Below, one piece after another: positions 1-51,555 of a stretch of DNA of 64,000 bases (its first letter is position 1; each line of letters begins with the position of its first letter). The position numbers were made by a program, and so were the translations under genes. A model generated the notes under the pieces. That model did not search any database and was not told where the DNA came from. It saw only the letters and a program-made list of their open reading frames with translations. The stretch is taken from the IMG/VR virus record IMGVR_UViG_3300033182_000581, positions 1 through 64,000 of that record; one strand, written 5' to 3'. This stretch comes from a virus.

Positions 1-1
1 A

Positions 2-1273
2 TTAGCAAGAATAATTCCGTTTGTACCAAATCAATCTAAATCATATGTTCAGAAAAGAGGATTAGAAATTTACGATGAACTTGAAAAAGATGAATCAGTA
101 AACGAAGGTAAGCACGATGCTATGTTAGACAAACTTGCTGACATCGTGAAAAGTGCTAAATCATTTATGGACATTGGTAAAGAATTGAAAAAGAATGGAA
201 TCAAGTATTCATTCGGTACTAATATGATACCAATGTATATAATTGATAAACCAGCTAAGATTGCAATTCTAAATAACAAATACGCAGATGGTGCTGAGAG
301 AGTTGTTGGTACTACCGCAATTGGTTTGATGGAAGGTATGGTTGCTGAAGTAACTAATGTTGATAAGGATGATAAAGAGAACGCAAAGAAGTTTACAAAA
401 GAATCAATGAAGTTAAGTGATATGATTAAGAAACCATCAGTAAACGAAGATACCAAAAAAAGATTTGATGTAGATTTCTATAAAGGTAATGGAGATAGAC
501 AAACATCACATGAAGAAATAATTAGAGGAGATAAATTTTCTGATGTAGTTTCTCAAGCAACTAAAGTTGCAAAATCAAAAGGAATGAATTATGTTGAATT
601 TTATTATAAAAATTCATTCATTGGTTCTATTGATAAGAGAAACAACTACACATTTAAAAAAGGTAGAGATTATCAAAAATCACCGTTATCAGTAAATGAA
701 GCTAAATACGATATTGGAATGGCTCGTAAAGGAAATGGATTAACCATTTACAACAAAGCAGAAGAAGAAGCAGGTGATTACAAAAACATCGCTCACGTTG
801 ATAACAAAGGTAAAATCAAATTCTACGATAAGAAACTTCCATCTAAGATTAAAAAACAAATCGAAGATGAAGCTAGGAAAATGATTGAATCAATGAATGA
901 AAATAAATCAACAAAACTAAAATCATTGTTGAACGAATCATTCGGAATTGGTGAACTACCATCATCTAAATTGATTAAGATGAAAGTATCTTTTTCAGAG
1001 ATTATGAATGAAGGAAGAGCATCTGCTAAGAAACTATTACAATCAGTAGTTAATGGTGAAACTGATAGAGTGGAAGGTATTAAACTTTCAAAAGAAATGG
1101 CACAATCATTTTTAGATTGGCAGAGATTATCACCTTATGGTAAGAAGTATGGTGATTTACCATTCAATATGTTATTCAAAGCAGCATTCAATTGGGGATT
1201 ACATAGACACGCTGATAAAAAATCCAAAGAGTACAAAGAGTTGGAAGCAAAAGCCAAAACGATGAAAAAATAA
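2..1273 (+). CDS. 5'-truncated modular protein, probable head-internal (prohead-protease-processed) protein
   Basis: Frame is open from base 2 (LARIIPF...KDESVNEGKHDAM) into the 122..1273 ORF. Lys-rich modules are separated by SVNE/SMNE/LLNE/IMNE motifs. Lies just upstream of the head genes. Confidence 0.6.
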   Translation, partial: LARIIPFVPNQSKSYVQKRGLEIYDELEKDESVNEGKHDAMLDKLADIVKSAKSFMDIGKELKKNGIKYSFGTNMIPMYIIDKPAKIAILNNKYADGAERVVGTTAIGLMEGMVAEVTNVDKDDKENAKKFTKESMKLSDMIKKPSVNEDTKKRFDVDFYKGNGDRQTSHEEIIRGDKFSDVVSQATKVAKSKGMNYVEFYYKNSFIGSIDKRNNYTFKKGRDYQKSPLSVNEAKYDIGMARKGNGLTIYNKAEEEAGDYKNIAHVDNKGKIKFYDKKLPSKIKKQIEDEARKMIESMNENKSTKLKSLLNESFGIGELPSSKLIKMKVSFSEIMNEGRASAKKLLQSVVNGETDRVEGIKLSKEMAQSFLDWQRLSPYGKKYGDLPFNMLFKAAFNWGLHRHADKKSKEYKELEAKAKTMKK

Positions 1274-1602: not shown

Positions 1603-1610
1603 TATTTATA
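1603..1610 (+). promoter_or_regulatory. putative late promoter box TATTTATA upstream of bS21
   Basis: The same TATTTAT(A) box recurs in about 16 gene-boundary positions, mostly before virion genes. Confidence 0.6.
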
Positions 1611-1646
1611 TACACCTATCATAAGTTTGGTAGGTGTATTTTTTTT
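1610..1646 (+). terminator. intrinsic terminator
   Basis: 12-bp stem ATACACCTATCA/TGGTAGGTGTAT (one G-U), loop TAAGTT, then an 8-nt T run. Confidence 0.75.
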
Positions 1647-1658
1647 AATATAGATTAT

Positions 1659-1919
1659 ATGCAAGAACAAAACAAAAAACGTTACAAAAAAGTGAGAAGA
1701 GAAGATATGGAAATTCCCGGTGCTCCATTAGGTGTAAAAGTTGTAAACAATCAGATTGAACCGGCTTTAAGACTTTGGAAAAGAAAAGTAAAAGATAGTG
1801 GTCATTTGGATGAGTTGAAAGAAAGACAACAATACACAAAACCAGCTGCTAAGAGAAGAAGGCAAAAACAATTGGCTGTTAGAGCTGAGTGGGTTCGTAG
1901 ACAAATAGAAAACTATTAA
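1659..1919 (+). CDS. rpsU: phage-encoded 30S ribosomal protein bS21
   Basis: GVKVVNNQIEPALRLWKRKVKDSGHLDELKERQQYTKPAAKRRRQK matches the S21 pattern (IE.ALR.FKR...G...E.K.R..Y.KP). Has an N-terminal extension of about 22 aa. Confidence 0.9.
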   Translation: MQEQNKKRYKKVRREDMEIPGAPLGVKVVNNQIEPALRLWKRKVKDSGHLDELKERQQYTKPAAKRRRQKQLAVRAEWVRRQIENY

Positions 1920-2068
1920 ACACTTTTTTAGTGTTTTCAATTTTAGTACACTATTTATTAGAAATCAAAATACTATCTCTCCAATAGATAGTCAAAGATT
2001 ATTTGTATAAAATTCTATTAAGATTCCCAATAATCTTATTTCCGCAAGAAAATTTAAGGAGAACGAAA

Positions 2069-3106
2069 ATGGCAAGAAAAGACTTGTTATCAGAAGCAAT
2101 CGCTGATGCGAAAGCCGTTAAAGAAACTGCTCTAGCAAATGCGAAGTTGGCTTTGGAAGAAGCATTCACTCCAAAACTTCAATCAATGATTTCTGCTAAG
2201 TTAGCTGAAGAGGCTGATGAGGAAGAGGTTGACGAAGAATTAGATTCATCAGATTTAGGTGCTGGCGATAACGCTCAACCTGATGCAGATGCTGCTAGTT
2301 CATCTGATATTGAAAACGATGATGAATTGACTGAAGAAGAGGATGAGGAAGTTTCTGAAGAAGAAACAACTGAAGAAGGTTGGAACGAAGAAGAAGAAGT
2401 ATCCGAAGAAGATGATATGGAAGAAACTTACGAAGGTGAGGAAGAAGTATCTGAAGAAGATGATATGGAAGATTCTGAAGAAGAAGATGAGTACGAAGAA
2501 GATGATGAAGATGATTTAGATTTAGAATCTGTAATCGCTGAATTAGAAGCTGAGTTAGAAGAAGAGGATGATGAAGAAGTATCTGAAGAAGAAGATGAAG
2601 TATCTGAAGAAGAAGATGAAGTATCTGAAGAAGAAGATATGGATGACGAAGAAGAAATCGACTTGGATGAAGTTATCAGAACTCTGAAAGAAATGGAAGG
2701 TGAAGAAGAGGTAGCTGAAGAAGAAGAGATGGACGAAGAAGAAGATACTGCTGCCGAGTTAGAAGAAGCTTATAAGACTATCAACTCTTTGAGAAAAACA
2801 ATCAATGAAGTTAATTTGTTGAATGCTAAACTTCTTTACACTAACAAATTGTTCAGAACATTTGACTTGAACGAAAATCAGAAAGTTAAAGTTCTTGAAA
2901 ACTTTGATAGAACATCTTCAGTTCGTGAAGTAAAATTAGTTTTCTCTACATTGGCTGAGAACTTAAACGTAGCTAAGAAGAGAAAAGCAGTTGTAAAAGA
3001 GGGATACGCCTCTAAGGCAACAAAAAGTTCTGCACCTAAGAAACAAATTATTTCTGAAGGTAACGAAATGGCTGCAAGATGGAAAAAACTTGCGGGTTTA
3101 AAATAA
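2069..3106 (+). CDS. prohead core/scaffolding protein (T4 gp22-like)
   Basis: Very acidic, coiled-coil-like protein directly upstream of the major capsid gene. ATG 2069 follows AAGGAG, so the TTG start at 2003 is unlikely. Confidence 0.75.
   Translation: MARKDLLSEAIADAKAVKETALANAKLALEEAFTPKLQSMISAKLAEEADEEEVDEELDSSDLGAGDNAQPDADAASSSDIENDDELTEEEDEEVSEEETTEEGWNEEEEVSEEDDMEETYEGEEEVSEEDDMEDSEEEDEYEEDDEDDLDLESVIAELEAELEEEDDEEVSEEEDEVSEEEDEVSEEEDMDDEEEIDLDEVIRTLKEMEGEEEVAEEEEMDEEEDTAAELEEAYKTINSLRKTINEVNLLNAKLLYTNKLFRTFDLNENQKVKVLENFDRTSSVREVKLVFSTLAENLNVAKKRKAVVKEGYASKATKSSAPKKQIISEGNEMAARWKKLAGLK
2576..2638 (+). repeat. 3 x 21-bp perfect tandem repeat GAAGTATCTGAAGAAGAAGAT (EVSEEED)
   Basis: Read directly from the sequence; degenerate copies occur upstream in the same acidic region. 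Confidence 0.9.
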
Positions 3107-3131
3107 TATTATAAGGAAACGGAGAATAAAA

Positions 3132-4769
3132 ATGAATTTAAAAAACATTCTTAATGAAGGCGCTTCCCACCAGACACGTTTGAGTGAAGCAACTCGCGAG
3201 TTGGCTTCAAAGTGGGAAAAGACTGGTCTTTTAGAAGGAATCGACAACGAAATCGAAAGAGCCGGTGTTGCAACCCTTTTAGAAAACCAAGCACGTCAGT
3301 TAGTAAAAGAGGCATCAGCTACTGGTACTTCTGCTAACTCTGAAGAGTGGGCTGGTGTAGCTCTACCTTTGGTAAGACGTATTTTTAGTGAAATCGTAGC
3401 AAAAGACTTTGTAAGTGTTCAACCAATGAACCTTCCTTCAGGTCTTGTATTCTACTTAGATTTCAAATATGGAACAGGACAACCTGGTTTCACTACTGGT
3501 TCTGGAAAAGATTCACAAGCTGATTCTGTATTCGGTATCACCGAAACTACTTCAGACCCTTCTGGTGGTTTGTATGGTGCTGGTAGATTTGGATACTCAG
3601 TAAACGACCAAGTATCTGCTGCTCAAACTTTGGGTACTGCTGGTGCTAACAAATTCGTAACTGGTTCTGTATCTGCTGCTGATTACAACTACGATACTAA
3701 CTTCTCTCAATCTTACGCAAGTGAGATTGCAAGTGGTGAAGTATTTACTGCAGCTGTACCTACTGCATCTATCTCTGGATACGATGATAAAGGTATCAGA
3801 GCGTTCAGAGTAACATCTGCTGATGTAACTGACCAATTCCCACAATTTACTAAGTTGAGTGGTGGTGATGTTGTGTTCGTATTGCAAGGTACTTTAGATG
3901 CTACTAATGACTTGAGAGTTAAGTATCACAAACAACCAACTGATACTTCAAGAGGTGATTTCGAAGCAACTGGAACTTCATTGAGTGCTAATCCAGAAGT
4001 AGATATCGATATTCCTGAATTGAACGTAGAAATGAAGTCTTTACCAATCGTGGCTAAGACTCGTAAGTTGAAAGCACAATGGACTCCTGAATTCGCACAA
4101 GATTTGAATGCTTACCATTCAATCGATGCTGAAGCTGAATTGACTTCAATGTTATCTGAGTACATCTCACAAGAGATTGATTTCGAAATCTTAGATATGT
4201 TGATTCAAGATGCTAAGAGCACTGGTTACTGGTCAACTCAAGTTGGACGTGAGTGGAATGGTTCAGCATTTGCTGATTACTCTACTACTGGAGCTCAAGC
4301 TTCTGCATTCACTCAACAAGCATGGTTCCAGACTTTGGGTACTGTGATTGCTGGTGTATCTAACAAAATTCACCAAAAAACACTTCGTGGTGGTGCTAAC
4401 TTCTTAGTAGTATCTCCTGATGTTGCAACTATCATCGAATCTATCCCTGGATACGCTTCAACTGCCGATAATGGTGATGCTCAGTTCGCATTTGGTGTAA
4501 CTAAGATTGGTGCATTGAATAGTAGATTCCAAGTGTACAAAAACCCTTATATGAAAGAGAACGTAATCCTTATGGGTTATAGAGGAACTCAGTTCTTAGA
4601 GACTGGTGCAGTTTACTCTCCATACATCCCATTGATTATGACTCCATTAGTATATGACCCTAAGAACTTCACTCCAAGAAAAGGTGTAATGACTCGTTAC
4701 GCTAAGAAAATGTTGAGAGGTGAATTCTACGGTAAGGTATATGTAGATGGACTTCACAAAATTCAGTAA
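3132..4769 (+). CDS. gp23: major capsid protein (T4 gp23 family)
   Basis: Motifs LPLVRR, VSVQPM, AKTRKLKAQWTPEFAQDL.AYH.IDAEAEL, YSPYIPL, TPRKGVMTRYA. Confidence 0.96.
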   Translation: MNLKNILNEGASHQTRLSEATRELASKWEKTGLLEGIDNEIERAGVATLLENQARQLVKEASATGTSANSEEWAGVALPLVRRIFSEIVAKDFVSVQPMNLPSGLVFYLDFKYGTGQPGFTTGSGKDSQADSVFGITETTSDPSGGLYGAGRFGYSVNDQVSAAQTLGTAGANKFVTGSVSAADYNYDTNFSQSYASEIASGEVFTAAVPTASISGYDDKGIRAFRVTSADVTDQFPQFTKLSGGDVVFVLQGTLDATNDLRVKYHKQPTDTSRGDFEATGTSLSANPEVDIDIPELNVEMKSLPIVAKTRKLKAQWTPEFAQDLNAYHSIDAEAELTSMLSEYISQEIDFEILDMLIQDAKSTGYWSTQVGREWNGSAFADYSTTGAQASAFTQQAWFQTLGTVIAGVSNKIHQKTLRGGANFLVVSPDVATIIESIPGYASTADNGDAQFAFGVTKIGALNSRFQVYKNPYMKENVILMGYRGTQFLETGAVYSPYIPLIMTPLVYDPKNFTPRKGVMTRYAKKMLRGEFYGKVYVDGLHKIQ

Positions 4770-4825: not shown

Positions 4826-4846
4826 ATGCAATTATATCTGAATCTA

Positions 4847-4865
4847 TATCTTTGTGATATTTATA
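4847..4865 (+). promoter_or_regulatory. adjacent host-type -7 box (TATCTTTG) and late box (TATTTATA) before phoH
   Basis: TATCTTTG at 4847-4854 and TATTTATA at 4858-4865. Confidence 0.5.
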
Positions 4866-4900
4866 CCAAAGGTTCTACAATAACTAAGGAATGGAAATAT

Positions 4901-5560
4901 ATGACGGAGAACAAATCTAAAACCCCGCCAAAAGGTAATGTAAAATTCTCATTAACATTATCTGAAGAACAAAAATTAGCAAAAGCAGAAATTTTAAAAC
5001 ACCCATTTAATTTTGTAGTAGGAAAGGCAGGTAGTGGTAAAACATTACTGGCAGTTCAGATTGCGTTGGATATGTTTTTTAAAAGACAGGTAAATCATAT
5101 TATCATAACAAGACCAACTGTTTCAAATGAAGATAATGGATTCCTTCCAGGTTCATTAGAAGAAAAGATGGAGCCGTGGTTAGTTCCAATTCGTTCAAAT
5201 ATGAGAAAAGTTTACAATAAACCTACCATTTTAGAGAAGATGGAAAGTGATGATAATATAGAATTAGTAAGTTTATCACATTTTAGAGGAAGAACTTTTG
5301 ATGATTCCATAATTATAGTAGATGAGTTCCAAAATCTTACCAAACAACAACTACTTATGGTATTAGGTAGGGTTGGTAAGGGCTCTACAATGATTCTTTG
5401 TGGTGATAAACAACAAATTGATTTAAAATTCGCAAATGATTCAGCAATACATGAAGTTCCGAAATTAAAAGGCTCAGATTGGGTATATGATATTGTATTA
5501 AAAGATAATCATAGACATGAATCTTTGGACGAAATCCTCAGACTCCTAACTGATTACTAA
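4901..5560 (+). CDS. phoH: PhoH family ATPase
   Basis: GKAGSGKT Walker A, TRP, GFLPG, RGRTF, DEFQN and GDKQQID motifs. Start set at ATG 4901 after AAGGAATGGA. Confidence 0.92.
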   Translation: MTENKSKTPPKGNVKFSLTLSEEQKLAKAEILKHPFNFVVGKAGSGKTLLAVQIALDMFFKRQVNHIIITRPTVSNEDNGFLPGSLEEKMEPWLVPIRSNMRKVYNKPTILEKMESDDNIELVSLSHFRGRTFDDSIIIVDEFQNLTKQQLLMVLGRVGKGSTMILCGDKQQIDLKFANDSAIHEVPKLKGSDWVYDIVLKDNHRHESLDEILRLLTDY

Positions 5561-6840: not shown

Positions 6841-9495
6841 ATGGCTCAAACGATAAAACATAGAAGAGGTTCGATATCCTCAGTTAGAAACATCACATCA
6901 TTTGGTGAAGCTGAAATTGTTATTGGTAGCGGTTCAGTTGACTCAAAAGTAGTAGGACCTGTTGTTTACATCGGTAAACCAGGTGGTACAACTGCGGCAA
7001 ATGATTATGTTCCAATTTCAAAAATGTATGTGGGTAGCGGGTTACCTTCAATAACTCCAGCACAATATGGTACAACATTAGATGGGTTACCATATTATGA
7101 TACAACAAACAAAAAGATTTATATTTTAGGTGCAAATGCGGATGGTACTTCTGGCCATACTGAAATATCTATTACATCTGCATCTATTGAAAACTTTAAT
7201 TCAGTAGTTGTATCTGCACTACCCGATGGAACTGTAAGTGGTTCATCTCAAATATCATTTTTAAGTATAAGTGATATTCCATCTGGAATTGTATCATCTT
7301 CAACACAAATTACCAATGTTATCACCGACTCATACATCTCAGCATCTGCTGCAGCAAGTGGATTCGGGTCAGGCGGTGGTGCTTCAGTTGGTGGAATCTT
7401 TATTCAAACAGGTTCAGTTTACGCAACCACAAATGATTTAGAAGTTACAGGTTCAATAAACGCAACCAATATTAATGCAGGAACTCCTACTTCTAATGCA
7501 TGGCAAACAAACTTAGAAGGTTCTTACTTTAATAACTTTACAAAAGATACTGATGTATCTGAGATTTTAAGATTTGTGGCTGGATTATTATCATCATCGG
7601 CAGCTAACCCAACTGCAAATACAAAAACATATAGTTCAATTAGTGAAAATAAATCTTTGGGTGCAACTTCTAATATTTCAGGTTACATTCCACAAGACCA
7701 GGATATTAATGATGTACAATATCTAATTGATAACGGATTCGCTGCAGTAGGTGGTACAATATTCCCTGGTAAAACAATTTATACATCAACAACACCATTG
7801 ATTTCATATTCATCTGTTGCGGGTGGTTCTACATCCGTACAATCATCAGCAGACTCTCAATTATTTGGGTTAGGTGGTTTAAGTAGTGGTGCTGGTACTG
7901 AGTTTAGAGTGAGTGGTTCACATTCATTTAGTTTTTATCAATCACAAACTGCGATTGATGGTGATACTGCAACTGAAACATCTGAATCATCACAAATATT
8001 AAGTAATTCAACATTAGATACTACATCAAATGGTGTTACACTTGGTAAAATTCAAACAGTCAACCCTGCAGTAATTCCTGCAGCATTCCAAGATGGTAAA
8101 TTTGCAACGGTATTTAGTAAAAACTTAGTAGATTGGACATCGGAATTATTAACATCGGTTTCTGCATCAGGTCAATACAAAATTAGTACAACAATTGGTA
8201 TTGGTACGGGTTCACAATCAGATTACACAACAAAATCAGCTGATGAAACAATTTTTTGGGCACCAATATCAACAATCACTTCAAATTTAGGTTCACAAAC
8301 ATTATCTTACTCTGGTGATACCACAACAGCATTAACTGCAACATCTGGTTCAATCTCTGGAGCACCATATTTAAGTGGTGGTACTTGGAATTTAGTTGTA
8401 ACTATGAGTGGTTTGTTTGAACCATTATATGCGGCATCTACAACATTGGGTGATGTTATCGTTACAAACCCATCTGCAAATGGAAGTATTGTTGTATCAA
8501 ACACATCAGGTGTAGATACATTATCAACCTCTGGTGGGGATGTATCAACCGCAAACGCAGTTTATGGTAGTGATGGTACTGTTAGAAGTACTGGTACTCA
8601 TCCATTTAGAACTGATGATTTTATTGTCGATGCAGTTTATACAATTAGTGGTACGGGAAATACGTTTGATGAAAGTGGTTTTACCGATACTGAGTTTAAT
8701 TTGGCAGTTAAAGGTAGAAATAGATTAGGTTCACAATCTACATTAGTTACTAAGAATGTGGCAATACATACCGCAGGTGATTTTGGTCAAATTGCTGATA
8801 GTGGTTCAATGGGATACTTTGGTGGTGGAACATCTTCACCAACTGGATTGGCAGAGACGTTCTTAACTGAAAGTTATAGAAGAGTAATTGGTTCACCAAC
8901 TGCGTTAACAACAACGTGGGATAAAGAAGCAAGTTTAACATTAGGTAATGGTGGTGATTTACAGGTTAAACCAGGATACTTAGTTAATCCTGAATCTGCA
9001 AATGGATATTGGTATCCTACTGGAAATTATAATTCAGCACATTACAAATGGTATCTAAGAGAATTCACTACTGGAGCAGGTGCAAACGCATCTACATTAA
9101 GAATTGATTTAGACCCTGATACTTCTGCAGATTTAACAACATTTGATGATACCACTGCTAATAAGATTGCAGTAGGGGTGATTTTTGAATCACAATTACC
9201 TGCAAATAGTGGTGATAGTAGAACAACTATATTTGATGTAGTTAAAGGTAACGCATCTTATGGTGGTTCATATGATAACCAATCATCAGATAATCAGTTG
9301 AATCCATTTAGTGGTGCGGTTGATTTACAAGGAGATTTCTCATCTCTAACTAATTCATCTGGTACATTGACAGTGGGATTAACAAACGCAATTGGACAGA
9401 CAATAAACGCAACATATGATAAAGTTTGGGTATTGATAAGATATACAGGAACACCATCTAATACGTTAGAAGGTATAACAGTATCGTTACCATAA
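6841..9495 (+). CDS. large virion structural (fibre/appendage) protein
   Basis: 884-aa Ser/Thr/Gly-rich ORF with N-terminal IKHRRG fibre-type motif, in the late cluster. Confidence 0.6.
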   Translation: MAQTIKHRRGSISSVRNITSFGEAEIVIGSGSVDSKVVGPVVYIGKPGGTTAANDYVPISKMYVGSGLPSITPAQYGTTLDGLPYYDTTNKKIYILGANADGTSGHTEISITSASIENFNSVVVSALPDGTVSGSSQISFLSISDIPSGIVSSSTQITNVITDSYISASAAASGFGSGGGASVGGIFIQTGSVYATTNDLEVTGSINATNINAGTPTSNAWQTNLEGSYFNNFTKDTDVSEILRFVAGLLSSSAANPTANTKTYSSISENKSLGATSNISGYIPQDQDINDVQYLIDNGFAAVGGTIFPGKTIYTSTTPLISYSSVAGGSTSVQSSADSQLFGLGGLSSGAGTEFRVSGSHSFSFYQSQTAIDGDTATETSESSQILSNSTLDTTSNGVTLGKIQTVNPAVIPAAFQDGKFATVFSKNLVDWTSELLTSVSASGQYKISTTIGIGTGSQSDYTTKSADETIFWAPISTITSNLGSQTLSYSGDTTTALTATSGSISGAPYLSGGTWNLVVTMSGLFEPLYAASTTLGDVIVTNPSANGSIVVSNTSGVDTLSTSGGDVSTANAVYGSDGTVRSTGTHPFRTDDFIVDAVYTISGTGNTFDESGFTDTEFNLAVKGRNRLGSQSTLVTKNVAIHTAGDFGQIADSGSMGYFGGGTSSPTGLAETFLTESYRRVIGSPTALTTTWDKEASLTLGNGGDLQVKPGYLVNPESANGYWYPTGNYNSAHYKWYLREFTTGAGANASTLRIDLDPDTSADLTTFDDTTANKIAVGVIFESQLPANSGDSRTTIFDVVKGNASYGGSYDNQSSDNQLNPFSGAVDLQGDFSSLTNSSGTLTVGLTNAIGQTINATYDKVWVLIRYTGTPSNTLEGITVSLP

Positions 9496-16000: not shown

Positions 16001-18080
16001 AGATATAGGTTCAGGTCTTTCAATTAGTGGAACAACATTAAGTAATTCAATCACCAACAACAACCAATTAACGAATGGTGCTGGATATATTACCGATGGT
16101 AATACCAATTGGAACAACTCATATGGGTTTATCACTGGAGTTGATTGGGGTGAAATTGGTGGAACACAATCAGATGTAAACATTAGTGGGTTCACTAATG
16201 ATAGTGGATTTACATCAAATACAGGTACTGTAACCTCAGTTGCAACTGGAACTGGACTAACGGGCGGAACAATCACATCGACTGGAACAATTTCCCTTTC
16301 ACATTTAGGTTTCCAAAACTTAACTGACCCGAATGATGATAGAATTGCGTTTTGGGATGATTCAGCTGGAGCATTTGGATGGTTAGATGCGGGTTCAAAC
16401 ATTACAATTAGTGGAACAACCATTTCAGCAACCAATACTACATACTCAGCAGGTTCACTTTTAGATTTAAGTGGTACTACATTTAATGTTGATTTATCAG
16501 AACTTACTGATATGACTCAAGCATGGTCAAACTCCACCGATGAATTTGTAGTATTAGATAGTGGTGTACAAAAAAGAAAGTTAAGTTCTGAGATATTTGG
16601 AAGTAATGCATTCAATAGTACAACAATTCCAACTAATAACAACCAATTAACAAATGGTGCGGGTTACATCACAGGATTAAATTGGAGTGAACTTGGCGGT
16701 GCACAATCTGATATTAACATTAGTGGATTTACTAATGATAGTGGATTCACATCAAATACAGGTACTGTAACCTCAGTAGGTGTAACTGCTGGAACAGGTC
16801 TTAGTGGTGGTGGTACAGTTACCACAACGGGAACTATTTCATTAGCAGTTGATTTATCAGAACTAACCGATATGACGGCAGCTATGGTTGGTACTGATGA
16901 ATTTATTGTATTAGATGCTGGTGCTGATAGAAGAAAAGCTGCAAATGAAATTCCGTTAAGTATATTTAGTAATGATAGTGGATTCATAACGAGTGTTGAT
17001 TGGAATGAGATTGGTGGAGCTCCTACTGATATTAATTTAAGTCAATTCACAAATGATTTAGCAGTTAGTGCATTTACCAATGATGTTGGATACACCACTA
17101 ATGTAGGTGATATCACTGGTGTAACTGCCGGAACTGGATTAAGTGGTGGTGGTACATCAGGTGGTGTAACACTTAACTTAGCAAACACAGCAGTAACTGC
17201 GGGTTCATATACAAACGCTGATATTACGGTAGATGCACAAGGTAGAATCACTGCAGCATCTAATGGTTCAGCAGGTGGGACTGGAGATATTACTTCAGTT
17301 AGATTAACTTCAGATAGTGGTTATGCTCAAGTTTTGTCTGGGGCTGCTAATTTCACTATTAATGGTGGTGGAACTGTTTCAACATCCGCAAGTGGTACAA
17401 CATTAACAATTACTGGCCCATCCAACGTAAGTGAATTAACTAATGATAGTGGTTATTATTCATCAGGAGATGCTGGAGATTTCAATTCACTTGCAGTGGG
17501 TAGTTCAGCTGCTATGAATCCAGGTGGTACTGCAACAAACCCAGCCATACACTTTGCAAATTCCAGTCTAACAACAAATAACGGAATATATAGTGCAAAT
17601 AGTAGTACCATTAATATATCTACCGCAGGTACTCAGAGAGCAACCTTTAATGGTAATGGTTTAAAAATTAATAATGGTGCATTGGGTGTAAGTGTTAATG
17701 CATCAACAACTGATGGTAGAATTGATGCTAGTAATGATATTGTAGCATACTCATCATCAGATAGAAGATGGAAAGAAAATATTAAACCAATTGATAACGC
17801 ATTAAATAAAATATTAAAAATTGGTGGATATGAATTCGATTGGAAAGAACTTTCAGAAGAAGAAAGAAAAACACAACATAGTAACGAAGGGCATGATGTT
17901 GGTGTAATAGCACAAGAAATCGAAGAAGTTCTTCCTGAAGTAGTTACTACGAGAGAAAACGGATTCAAAGGTGTTAAGTACGAAAAGATAGTACCATTAT
18001 TGATTGAAGGTATGAAAGAACAACAATCTCAAATTGAAGAACTTAAATCAGAAATCAGTAAACTTAAAGGAGAAGGATAA
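13059..18080 (+). CDS. long tail fibre with internal repeats and C-terminal intramolecular chaperone (peptidase S74)
   Basis: C-terminal SSDRRWKENI...GVIAQEIEEVLPEVV...YEKIVPLLIEGMKEQQ; many TNNNQLTNGAGYIT and GTGLTGG repeats. Confidence 0.88.
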   Translation: MPNWKKVIVSGSDASLNTLSVRNGAHITGSLNVYKSGSSVFSIDGSQGRLFEITDQLSGSLFAVSDISGVPSFEVFSDDTVKIGSFNSEAIIVEGSSARVTGSFSGSAEFDTLKLKSLSNQSSEATAVVINGSNVVGTRELGSNAFTSTTIPTNNNQLTNGAGYITSYTDTNYYLDGITKSGNTLTFSVNGTTNPTYTFGSNAFTSTTIPTNNNQLTNGAGYITGLNWSEIGGTQDSINVSGFNNDAGYTSNVGDITGVTAGTGLSGGGTSGTVTITNSDRGSSQNIFKNVAVSGQTSIVADSNNDTLTFAAGAGIGLTTNATTDTITITNSITNNNQLTNGAGYITDGNTNWNNSYGFITGVDWGEIGGTQSDINISGFTNDSGFTSNTGTVTSVASGTGLTGGTITTSGTLSLATAGVGAGTYGSTANGTKIDTITVDAYGRITAVATGATGTSTTSGTVTSVATGTGLTGGTITSTGTISLSHLGFQNLTDPNDDRIAFWDDSAGAFGWLDIGSGLSISGTTLSNTITNNNQLTNGAGYITDGNTNWNNSYGFITGVDWSEIGGTQSDINISGFTNDAGYTTNVGDITGVTAGDGLTGGGSSGGVTLNIGAGTGVTVNANDIAIGQAVGTSDDVEFNNLTLSGDLTVNGATTTISTTNTAIQDNLIELNSGATSNSNDSGIIIERGSTGNNALFIWDESADRFAVGTTTATADSTGNITFSTANLQANTFVGALSGNATTATSAGKWSTSRTLTLGGDLSGNVTFDGSANFTLTAAVANDSHTHDGRYYTESEVDTLLAAKDNYGSWTVSDGTNTTDISSGGTLTFSAGSNVDISESAGTVTIDSTNTTYSAGNGIGLSGTTFSVAAGTGLSQDASGLSLATAGAGAGTYGSTANGTKIDTITIDAYGRVTAVATGATGTSSTSGTVTSVATGTGLTGGTITSTGTISLSHLGLESLTDPDDDRIFFWDDSAGAAKWLDIGSGLSISGTTLSNSITNNNQLTNGAGYITDGNTNWNNSYGFITGVDWGEIGGTQSDVNISGFTNDSGFTSNTGTVTSVATGTGLTGGTITSTGTISLSHLGFQNLTDPNDDRIAFWDDSAGAFGWLDAGSNITISGTTISATNTTYSAGSLLDLSGTTFNVDLSELTDMTQAWSNSTDEFVVLDSGVQKRKLSSEIFGSNAFNSTTIPTNNNQLTNGAGYITGLNWSELGGAQSDINISGFTNDSGFTSNTGTVTSVGVTAGTGLSGGGTVTTTGTISLAVDLSELTDMTAAMVGTDEFIVLDAGADRRKAANEIPLSIFSNDSGFITSVDWNEIGGAPTDINLSQFTNDLAVSAFTNDVGYTTNVGDITGVTAGTGLSGGGTSGGVTLNLANTAVTAGSYTNADITVDAQGRITAASNGSAGGTGDITSVRLTSDSGYAQVLSGAANFTINGGGTVSTSASGTTLTITGPSNVSELTNDSGYYSSGDAGDFNSLAVGSSAAMNPGGTATNPAIHFANSSLTTNNGIYSANSSTINISTAGTQRATFNGNGLKINNGALGVSVNASTTDGRIDASNDIVAYSSSDRRWKENIKPIDNALNKILKIGGYEFDWKELSEEERKTQHSNEGHDVGVIAQEIEEVLPEVVTTRENGFKGVKYEKIVPLLIEGMKEQQSQIEELKSEISKLKGEG
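14074..14785 (+). repeat. 121-bp direct repeat (14074-14194 and 14665-14785, 1 mismatch) within the fibre gene
   Basis: Direct comparison of the two segments; a more diverged third copy lies near 16070-16190. Confidence 0.85.
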
Positions 18081-20956: not shown

Positions 20957-20997
20957 GAATCCACCATATTTATATACAAACACTAAGGAGAATATAA

Positions 20998-23860: not shown

Positions 23861-23930
23861 ATATAATCGTTTCTGATTTTTTGGAGTATTTATAGATATA
23901 TAAAACCAAAGAAAATAATAGGAGAAAAAA

Positions 23931-26381: not shown

Positions 26382-26427
26382 AAAAGAACAATATTTATAA
26401 TAAAGAAAAGATAACGGAGTAATATAA

Positions 26428-28162: not shown

Positions 28163-28196
28163 CTATATTTATACATATAACAATGGAGTAACTACT

Positions 28197-39800: not shown

Positions 39801-39813
39801 TTTCGTATATTTG
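39782..39813 (+). promoter_or_regulatory. Bacteroidota-type sigma promoter (-33 TTTG, -7 TATATTTG)
   Basis: TTTG 39782-85, 20-nt spacer, TATATTTG 39806-13. Confidence 0.8.
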
Positions 39814-43884: not shown

Positions 43885-44023
43885 TATTTATATAGGAGAA
43901 AGGTTTGGTAATCCCAAATCTTTTTCGTATATTTGTAACCATATCAACACATGGGAGTAAATGCGTGTTGAGAATAAAAAGTGAAATATAATTTGGATAA
44001 TTGAAAAATTATTCGTATATTTG
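43885..44023 (+). promoter_or_regulatory. triple promoter region of SSB gene: late box plus two Bacteroidota-type promoters
   Basis: TATTTATA at 43885; TTTG-N20-TATATTTG at 43904-43935 and 43992-44023. Confidence 0.75.
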
Positions 44024-47012: not shown

Positions 47013-47044
47013 TTTGTTTATTTAAAATAAAATTCGTATATTTG
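47013..47044 (+). promoter_or_regulatory. Bacteroidota-type promoter
   Basis: TTTG-N20-TATATTTG. Confidence 0.8.
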
Positions 47045-48409: not shown

Positions 48410-48465
48410 TCAGTATTTATAATCACTCAATAAAAGTTTAATAGAAGTAAAATCAGGAAAAAGTA

Positions 48466-51523: not shown

Positions 51524-51555
51524 TTTGGATAATTAAAAAATTATTCGTATATTAG
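51524..51555 (+). promoter_or_regulatory. Bacteroidota-type promoter heading the nucleotide-modification operon
   Basis: TTTG-N20-TATATTAG; nearly identical to the 43992 promoter. Confidence 0.75.

Follow-up and report, generated by a model that had tools for sequence, protein, structure and literature searches.

Among the relatives of the phage described here, the presence of a phage-encoded ribosomal protein bS21, and not the residue at its position 54, tracks late genes led by Shine-Dalgarno (SD) sites, the co-occurrence being nearly exceptionless. No other ribosomal protein turns up in phage genomes as often as bS21. More than 600 IMG/VR contigs matched the capsid clade. Two scans of IMG/VR returned 156 distinct loci encoding relatives of the phage capsid protein, and the 110 with at least seven genes and coverage of the zone where bS21 would sit were used for comparison. 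In the 56 loci with bS21 the mean SD pairing energy (dG) was -4.29 kcal/mol and 49% of genes lay at or below -5.5, as opposed to -0.53 kcal/mol and 6% of genes in the 54 loci without it (P=3e-19). A preliminary description of this DNA had called for SD pairing to be compared between related phages with and without bS21, and the comparison supports its model on this point.

Genomic context and identity of the phage bS21

The record is that of a T4-like phage whose host, by promoter type, belongs to the Bacteroidota. In full it comprises 169,380 bp (GC 34%, CheckV completeness 93%), with about 200 of its 213 ORF calls on the plus strand; the window, as the whole stretch of DNA analysed here is termed, is its first 64 kb (Table 1). 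Both ends of the record are cut, the first ORF being open at its 5' end (window positions 1-1273) and the other end lying at positions 163485-169380 of the present genome (G000). No match to the TerL, portal and prohead protease of Flavobacterium phage immuto was found in this end-cut record, and these three genes are left out of its late class.

The ORF at 1659-1919 had been read as bS21, an assignment corroborated by above-cut-off matches to Pfam Ribosomal_S21 (PF01165; 1.5e-12, 47.5 bits against a cut-off of 27) and NCBIfam TIGR00030 (48.3 bits against 28.95), and by a match to PHROG 21469. The protein also matched PDB bS21 chains at 1e-6. Its AlphaFold model (pLDDT 80.5) is of a small, basic protein with helices at residues 33-47, 49-55 and 62-85, and a Foldseek search against the PDB returned only a weak mitoribosomal bS21 match (E 0.57), isolated extended helices being a poor query. 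The N-terminal extension, of the form MQE.NKK.YKKVRREDMEIPG, is common to the homologues, and its conservation indicates that ATG 1659 is the true start of the gene. Searches of the GenBank phage collection gave no match, either by megablast with the first 12 kb or by tblastn with the phage bS21, and no homologues of bS18 or bS6 are encoded in the present genome.

The bS21 gene lies inside the structural block, 1.2 kb upstream of the capsid gene, and in all 57 relatives that carry bS21 it is found 1.3-2.9 kb upstream of that gene. Its leader consists of A and T only and has a dG of +0.4, in agreement with the earlier view that this gene has no SD. The late box ahead of it directly abuts a strong terminator-like hairpin, the 3' arm and T-run of which are kept in relatives. 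As judged from this arrangement, a late transcript from the 1603 box would begin within the 5' arm of the hairpin, escaping termination, and read-through arriving from upstream would stop there.

Other features of the record include a long acidic repeat region of EEVSEEED-type units in the scaffold protein (window 2230-2760) and a PhoH-like gene (window 4826-5560) whose start is probably ATG 4901, not 4826, since the longer ORF would enclose both an AAGGAA site and the late box at 4858. Beyond the window, four tRNA genes are clustered at 117185-118251 of the genome, namely Leu-TAA, Arg-TCT, Ser-TGA and Leu-TAG.

Table 1. Coordinates of the features discussed in the text, as positions in the window.
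Feature	Position	Strand	Remarks
Late-promoter-like box TATTTATA ahead of bS21	1603..1610	+	One of 30 plus-strand copies
Terminator-like hairpin, 12 pairs, plus T-run, between box and bS21	1610..1648	+	
bS21 gene, 86 aa, basic 21-residue N-terminal extension, no SD	1659..1919	+	
Arg75 codon, column of Bacteroidia bS21 Tyr54	1881..1883	+	Alignment with nine Bacteroidota bS21
Trp78 codon, conserved aromatic three residues past Arg75	1890..1892	+	
SD AAGGAG, 7 nt before scaffold start	2056..2061	+	dG -8.2
Acidic scaffold protein gene	2069..3106	+	52% identity to immuto gene adjoining capsid gene
SD GGAG, 7 nt before capsid start	3121..3124	+	dG -6.6
gp23-like major capsid protein gene	3132..4769	+	Pfam Gp23 6e-78
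SD AAGGAG, operon-internal late gene (start 18080)	18067..18072	+	dG -8.8
SD AAGGAG, head-completion/adaptor gene (start 20998)	20985..20990	+	
SD AGGAG, tail sheath gene (start 23931), 6 nt before ATG	23920..23924	+	
SD GGAG, tail tube gene (start 26428)	26416..26419	+	
SD GGAG	28185..28188		
Host-type -7 box TATATTTG, 4 nt before ATG 39818	39806..39813	+	SD-less early gene, probably leaderless
Host-type -7 box, 6 nt before DnaB-like helicase start 47051	47037..47044	+	
Host-type -7 box TATATTAG, 5 nt before MazG-like gene start 51561	51548..51555	+	

SD sites are concentrated on late genes

Gene starts were chosen without reference to SD, and positions -20 to -4 were paired with CACCUCCUUU using ViennaRNA duplexfold; in the window, SD cores were counted at -16 to -5. 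An SD-like motif complementary to the 16S rRNA 3' tail, 5-10 nt before the start, is enriched over background. In the window, late genes presented a mean dG of -4.78 and an SD core in 18 of 31 cases, against a mean of -2.38 and 5 of 23 cases for early genes (Mann-Whitney P=0.004, Fisher P=0.012), and a core precedes 7% of the 1534 internal ATGs. Across the genome, the 54 genes of the structural regions (baseplate, sheath, tube, fibre and capsid genes) averaged -4.28, with 44% at or below -5.5, as compared with -2.21 and 18% for the 158 remaining genes (late versus rest, P=5e-6). The remaining genes did not differ from the background of 4176 internal ATGs (mean -2.19, 15% at or below -5.5; P=0.95). 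The frequency of G reaches 34-45% at -11 to -8, against about 11% in the flanks, and a clear SD is present in just 44-58% of late genes, most sites spanning 4-6 nt. The contrast in pairing energy between late and early genes anticipated by the preliminary description is thus seen in the window, and the concentration of SD sites on late genes that it had reported holds both there and genome-wide, the remaining genes of the genome being at background level. Every SD coordinate that it had listed was correct on re-check.

Late boxes and host-type promoters define two classes of units

The TATTTATA box occurs 30 times on the plus strand and 6 times on the minus strand, and 24 of its copies are located at most 110 nt upstream of a gene start, where 3.9 would be expected. 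Copies at 43885, upstream of the gene for the single-stranded DNA-binding protein (SSB), and at 48414, at nrdB, accompany the one at 1603, confirming that these two replication genes carry the late box. Every relative examined has kept the box, Flavobacterium phage immuto among them.

A second motif, TTTGG-N16-20-TAT[AT]TT[TA]G, was found in its strict form 21 times on the plus strand and never on the minus strand; 21 occurrences precede genes, where 3.5 would be expected. It has the -33/-7 form of Bacteroidota promoters, the consensus of which (-33 TTTG, -7 TAnnTTTG) is regarded as specific to this phylum. Its presence ahead of early genes bears out the assumption of a Bacteroidota host. The 20 genes proximal to these early promoters (19 non-structural and one structural) have a median dG of +0.5, and in about ten early genes only 2-8 nt separate the end of the -7 box from the ATG, indicating that their mRNAs are probably leaderless. 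Besides the three of Table 1, such boxes, at 2-7 nt from the ATG, were observed at 65406, 68169, 92281, 97573, 111842 and 116232 of the present genome, and likewise in the related genomes G001 (10 genes) and G002 (12 genes).

When each gene was assigned to a unit by the last promoter upstream of it, late-box units presented stronger SD sites than early-promoter units in the present genome (P=1.4e-5), also within the non-structural region alone (P=0.006), and this was repeated in two related complete genomes (P=0.03 and 3e-4). Within the non-structural region, genes with a late box at most 110 nt from their start showed no significant difference in SD, this group comprising eight genes and several boxes lying too near the ATG.

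Co-occurrence of bS21 and SD-led late genes across relatives

The pooled leader profile of the bS21-encoding loci displays a G peak of 35-41% at -11 to -8. In the pooled profile of the loci lacking bS21, G is flat (7-12%) and A is enriched at -14 to -11 and at -3, a host-like pattern. Exceptions on the bS21-lacking side consist of some SD sites in L197, L235/L237 and L251. In L197, positions 7371-9351 hold a block of very strong SD sites (dG -7.6 to -10.9) that follows SD-less head genes and may reflect either mosaicism of the module or chimeric assembly. Among complete genomes with bS21, no late SD enrichment was seen in G004, whose bS21 is the most host-like.

Capsid trees were inferred with IQ-TREE (quick mode) and with FastTree. 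Clades without bS21 nest among clades with bS21 on the same structural-module tree, and the presence of bS21 maps to four parsimony changes, with two independent pairs on well-supported branches; with these two pairs, a phylogenetically independent pair test was underpowered.

The capsid protein of the present phage is 60% identical to that of Mel-JY01, the nearest named relative, recorded on Microcystis, whose bS21 has Lys at position 54 and whose late genes are SD-enriched. The bS21 gene itself has no SD in the present type or in the types with Tyr, and carries AAGGA in the Mel-JY01-like type. In G000, G001 and G002, Bacteroidota-type early promoters occur together with SD-led late genes; several relatives show this promoter motif only weakly. 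Three short contigs (L005, L006 and L007) bearing differing phage-type bS21 genes belong to a single metagenome-assembled genome (MAG) labelled 'uncultured Flavobacterium sp.'; they are probably phage DNA binned with that of a host, which would give a weak hint as to host identity. The host rpsU genes of Flavobacteriales and Bacteroidales MAGs (L032, L040) have AAGGAG upstream, as described by Jha 2020 (PMC7797042), the reverse of what is seen in the present phage, whose bS21 gene is SD-less.

Residue 54 and its neighbours

In Flavobacterium johnsoniae, the 16S 3' tail bends towards bS18 and bS6 at A1534, on which Tyr54 of bS21 is stacked; Ile55 also touches the tail, and Tyr54 is conserved across the phylum (Jha 2020, PMC7797042). 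Mutation Y54A or loss of the bS21 C-terminus raises the output of SD reporters 3- to 5-fold in this species (McNutt 2023, PMC9976891). The phage bS21 was aligned with nine Bacteroidota sequences, including those of Prevotella, Galbibacter, Tenacibaculum and Robertkochia. In all nine, a Tyr lies 14 residues past the Lys of the KP motif, and the phage protein presents Arg75 in this column and Ala76 in that of Ile55. The PDB match to F. johnsoniae bS21 (7jil_z; phage residues 31-83 against 10-62) is in the same register, so that both lines of evidence agree with the earlier alignment from which Arg had been proposed to replace Tyr54. An SD-using bacterium has Lys at position 54. From KP to its end the phage protein has a net charge of +7, a value equalled by one of five host proteins, the other four having +2 to +3. 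The Bacteroidia-type features associated with anti-SD sequestration (Tyr54, an Ile55-type contact and a weakly basic C-terminal part) are hence absent from the phage protein.

Arg75 is nearly invariant in the present bS21 type, with Tyr found in a single close relative (L072), and nearly all members of the type have Trp or Tyr three residues further on. Arg75 and Trp78 both fall within the last predicted helix, where Trp78 would lie roughly on the same face as Arg75 and may still stack on the 16S rRNA as an aromatic contact.

The proposal that loss of Tyr54 constitutes the switch was not upheld. The 19 related loci whose bS21 has Tyr or Phe at position 54 also have SD-rich late genes, with a mean dG of -3.90 kcal/mol as against -4.50 kcal/mol in the 36 loci with Arg, Lys or Val (P=0.04), and loss of Tyr54 was therefore rejected as sole determinant. 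Given that relatives keeping Tyr54 have SD-led late genes, no defined residue explains unmasking. The determinant, which is not Tyr54 alone, may reside in the extension at the N-terminus and in the C-terminal helix, which is more basic.

Discussion

These observations can be arranged into a model of phage translation in which host-type -33/-7 promoters would drive the early genes, whose translation would not involve SD and many of whose mRNAs are probably leaderless. Since the anti-SD of the host is locked by bS21, bS18 and bS6, such SD-less genes would suit host ribosomes. Late units would start at the TATTTATA boxes and encode bS21 alongside virion genes, and the bS21 mRNA, having no SD, would be readable by unmodified ribosomes. 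Phage bS21 would then take the bS21 site on the 30S subunit, the 16S 3' tail would not be held in the platform pocket, and ribosomes with a freed anti-SD would favour SD-led late mRNAs. Incorporation into the ribosome, unmasking of the anti-SD and the translational advantage are all three steps that we infer. We regard it as evenly balanced whether phage bS21 does replace host bS21 and leave the anti-SD usable for late mRNAs. That it acts as a general late switch, turning SD-blind Bacteroidota ribosomes into SD-reading ones, so that early leaderless or A-rich mRNAs and those of the host lose to SD-led virion mRNAs, is a tentative reading to which we give somewhat less than even weight.

The same association could have arisen by common ancestry, with no causal link, if lineages with bS21 infect hosts, or host states, that already read SD and lineages without it infect SD-blind Bacteroidia. 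As bS21 changes only two to four times independently on the capsid tree, a host shift could lie behind the pattern. The weak Bacteroidota promoter motif in several relatives would agree with this, as would the record of Mel-JY01 on Microcystis and the AAGGA that precedes the bS21 gene in its clade. We nevertheless consider this explanation unlikely, because three genomes, the present one among them, pair Bacteroidota-type early promoters with SD-led late genes, and because clades lacking bS21 are nested among those encoding it on the structural-module tree. Furthermore, non-late genes at background level and SD depletion in the 20 early-promoter-proximal genes would be unexpected in an SD-reading host.

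It is also conceivable, if improbable in our view, that the late SD sites are used by bS21-free 30S subunits, with a free anti-SD, that accumulate once infection has shut off or destroyed the host protein, phage bS21 only supplying the essential N-terminal function or restoring normal ribosomes. Such a scenario fits the faster translation of SD-led rpsU by ribosomes without bS21 and the essential nature of the N-terminal part of this protein (PMC9976891), as well as the fact that phage bS21 proteins keeping Tyr54 still accompany SD-led late genes. However, it leaves the near-absence of SD in relatives without bS21 unexplained, and nothing in the present genome was identified as a protease or another factor directed against host bS21. 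The purine-rich motifs might, finally, not be SD sites at all, representing signals that govern RNA processing or stability, or else relics of a structural module acquired from a phage whose host uses SD. Many of the sites are just 4 nt long and about half of the late genes lack one, yet the sharp G peak at -11 to -8 in 900 genes of 56 loci, complementary to CCUCC, makes this very unlikely. The motif is, moreover, also found before operon-internal genes and is kept down to 56% capsid identity, and interleaved clades lacking bS21 are depleted below background. As to the switch by bS21 exchange, the general model is plausible on this comparative sequence evidence, and the Tyr54 mechanism is insufficient.

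The closest precedent among viruses is provided by the bS21-encoding freshwater myoviruses assigned to Bacteroidetes hosts, in which position 54 is aromatic in all 61 bS21 proteins and phage bS21 was concluded to keep the anti-SD blocked (Chen 2022, PMC9723584). The present phage resembles them in having bS21 close to the capsid gene within the structural block, in a late programme (here with a late box upstream), in its Bacteroidota host and in the N-terminal extension, but differs from them in having Arg at position 54. In the main text of Chen 2022 (PMC9723584), SD appears in the introduction, in a short passage on Bacteroidetes hosts and in the references only, and no analysis of SD in phage genes was found. 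A link between phage bS21 and the SD of phage genes is likewise absent from Al-Shayeb 2020, McNutt 2023 and two 2026 F. johnsoniae anti-SD papers, as it is from Chen 2022, and our literature search found no report tying phage bS21 to SD-led late genes.

The autoregulation of rpsU in F. johnsoniae (PMC7797042, PMC9976891) involves the same pocket and the same logic of Tyr54 and C-terminal helix, a free anti-SD favouring SD-led mRNA. It differs in that the host rpsU has a strong SD, standing out among ribosomal-protein genes, whereas in the phage the SD sites are on late genes and bS21 has none. The bS21 of Pelagibacter phage HTVC008M, a marine phage that is also T4-like and bS21-encoding, enters E. 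coli ribosomes in vivo (Mizuno 2019, PMC6375957, as cited in PMC9976891); its host belongs to another phylum, and it is not known to have been linked to SD use. In Francisella tularensis, bS21 paralogues shift which mRNAs the ribosome prefers (PMC9578407); these paralogues are cellular, not viral, and are not known to act through anti-SD unmasking. Flavobacterium phage vB_FspM_immuto (MW353176) shares with the present phage its capsid clade (55% identity), gene order and the TATTTATA late box, but is devoid of bS21 and SD-depleted in all of its genes, which average -0.3 where the background is -2.4. Cellulophaga phages have also been described as being without SD signals (2021 preprint).

Late genes led by an SD although the host ignores such sites, the near-absence of these sites from relatives lacking bS21 and a bS21 gene without an SD point in the opposite direction to the published conclusion that phage bS21 blocks the anti-SD. 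Their co-occurrence suggests a testable role for phage bS21 in retuning the ribosome. If true, this would amount to a temporal translational switch operated through the exchange of a single ribosomal protein. Were the general-switch reading also to hold, control over access to the anti-SD would be the reason why phages encode bS21 more often than any other ribosomal protein.
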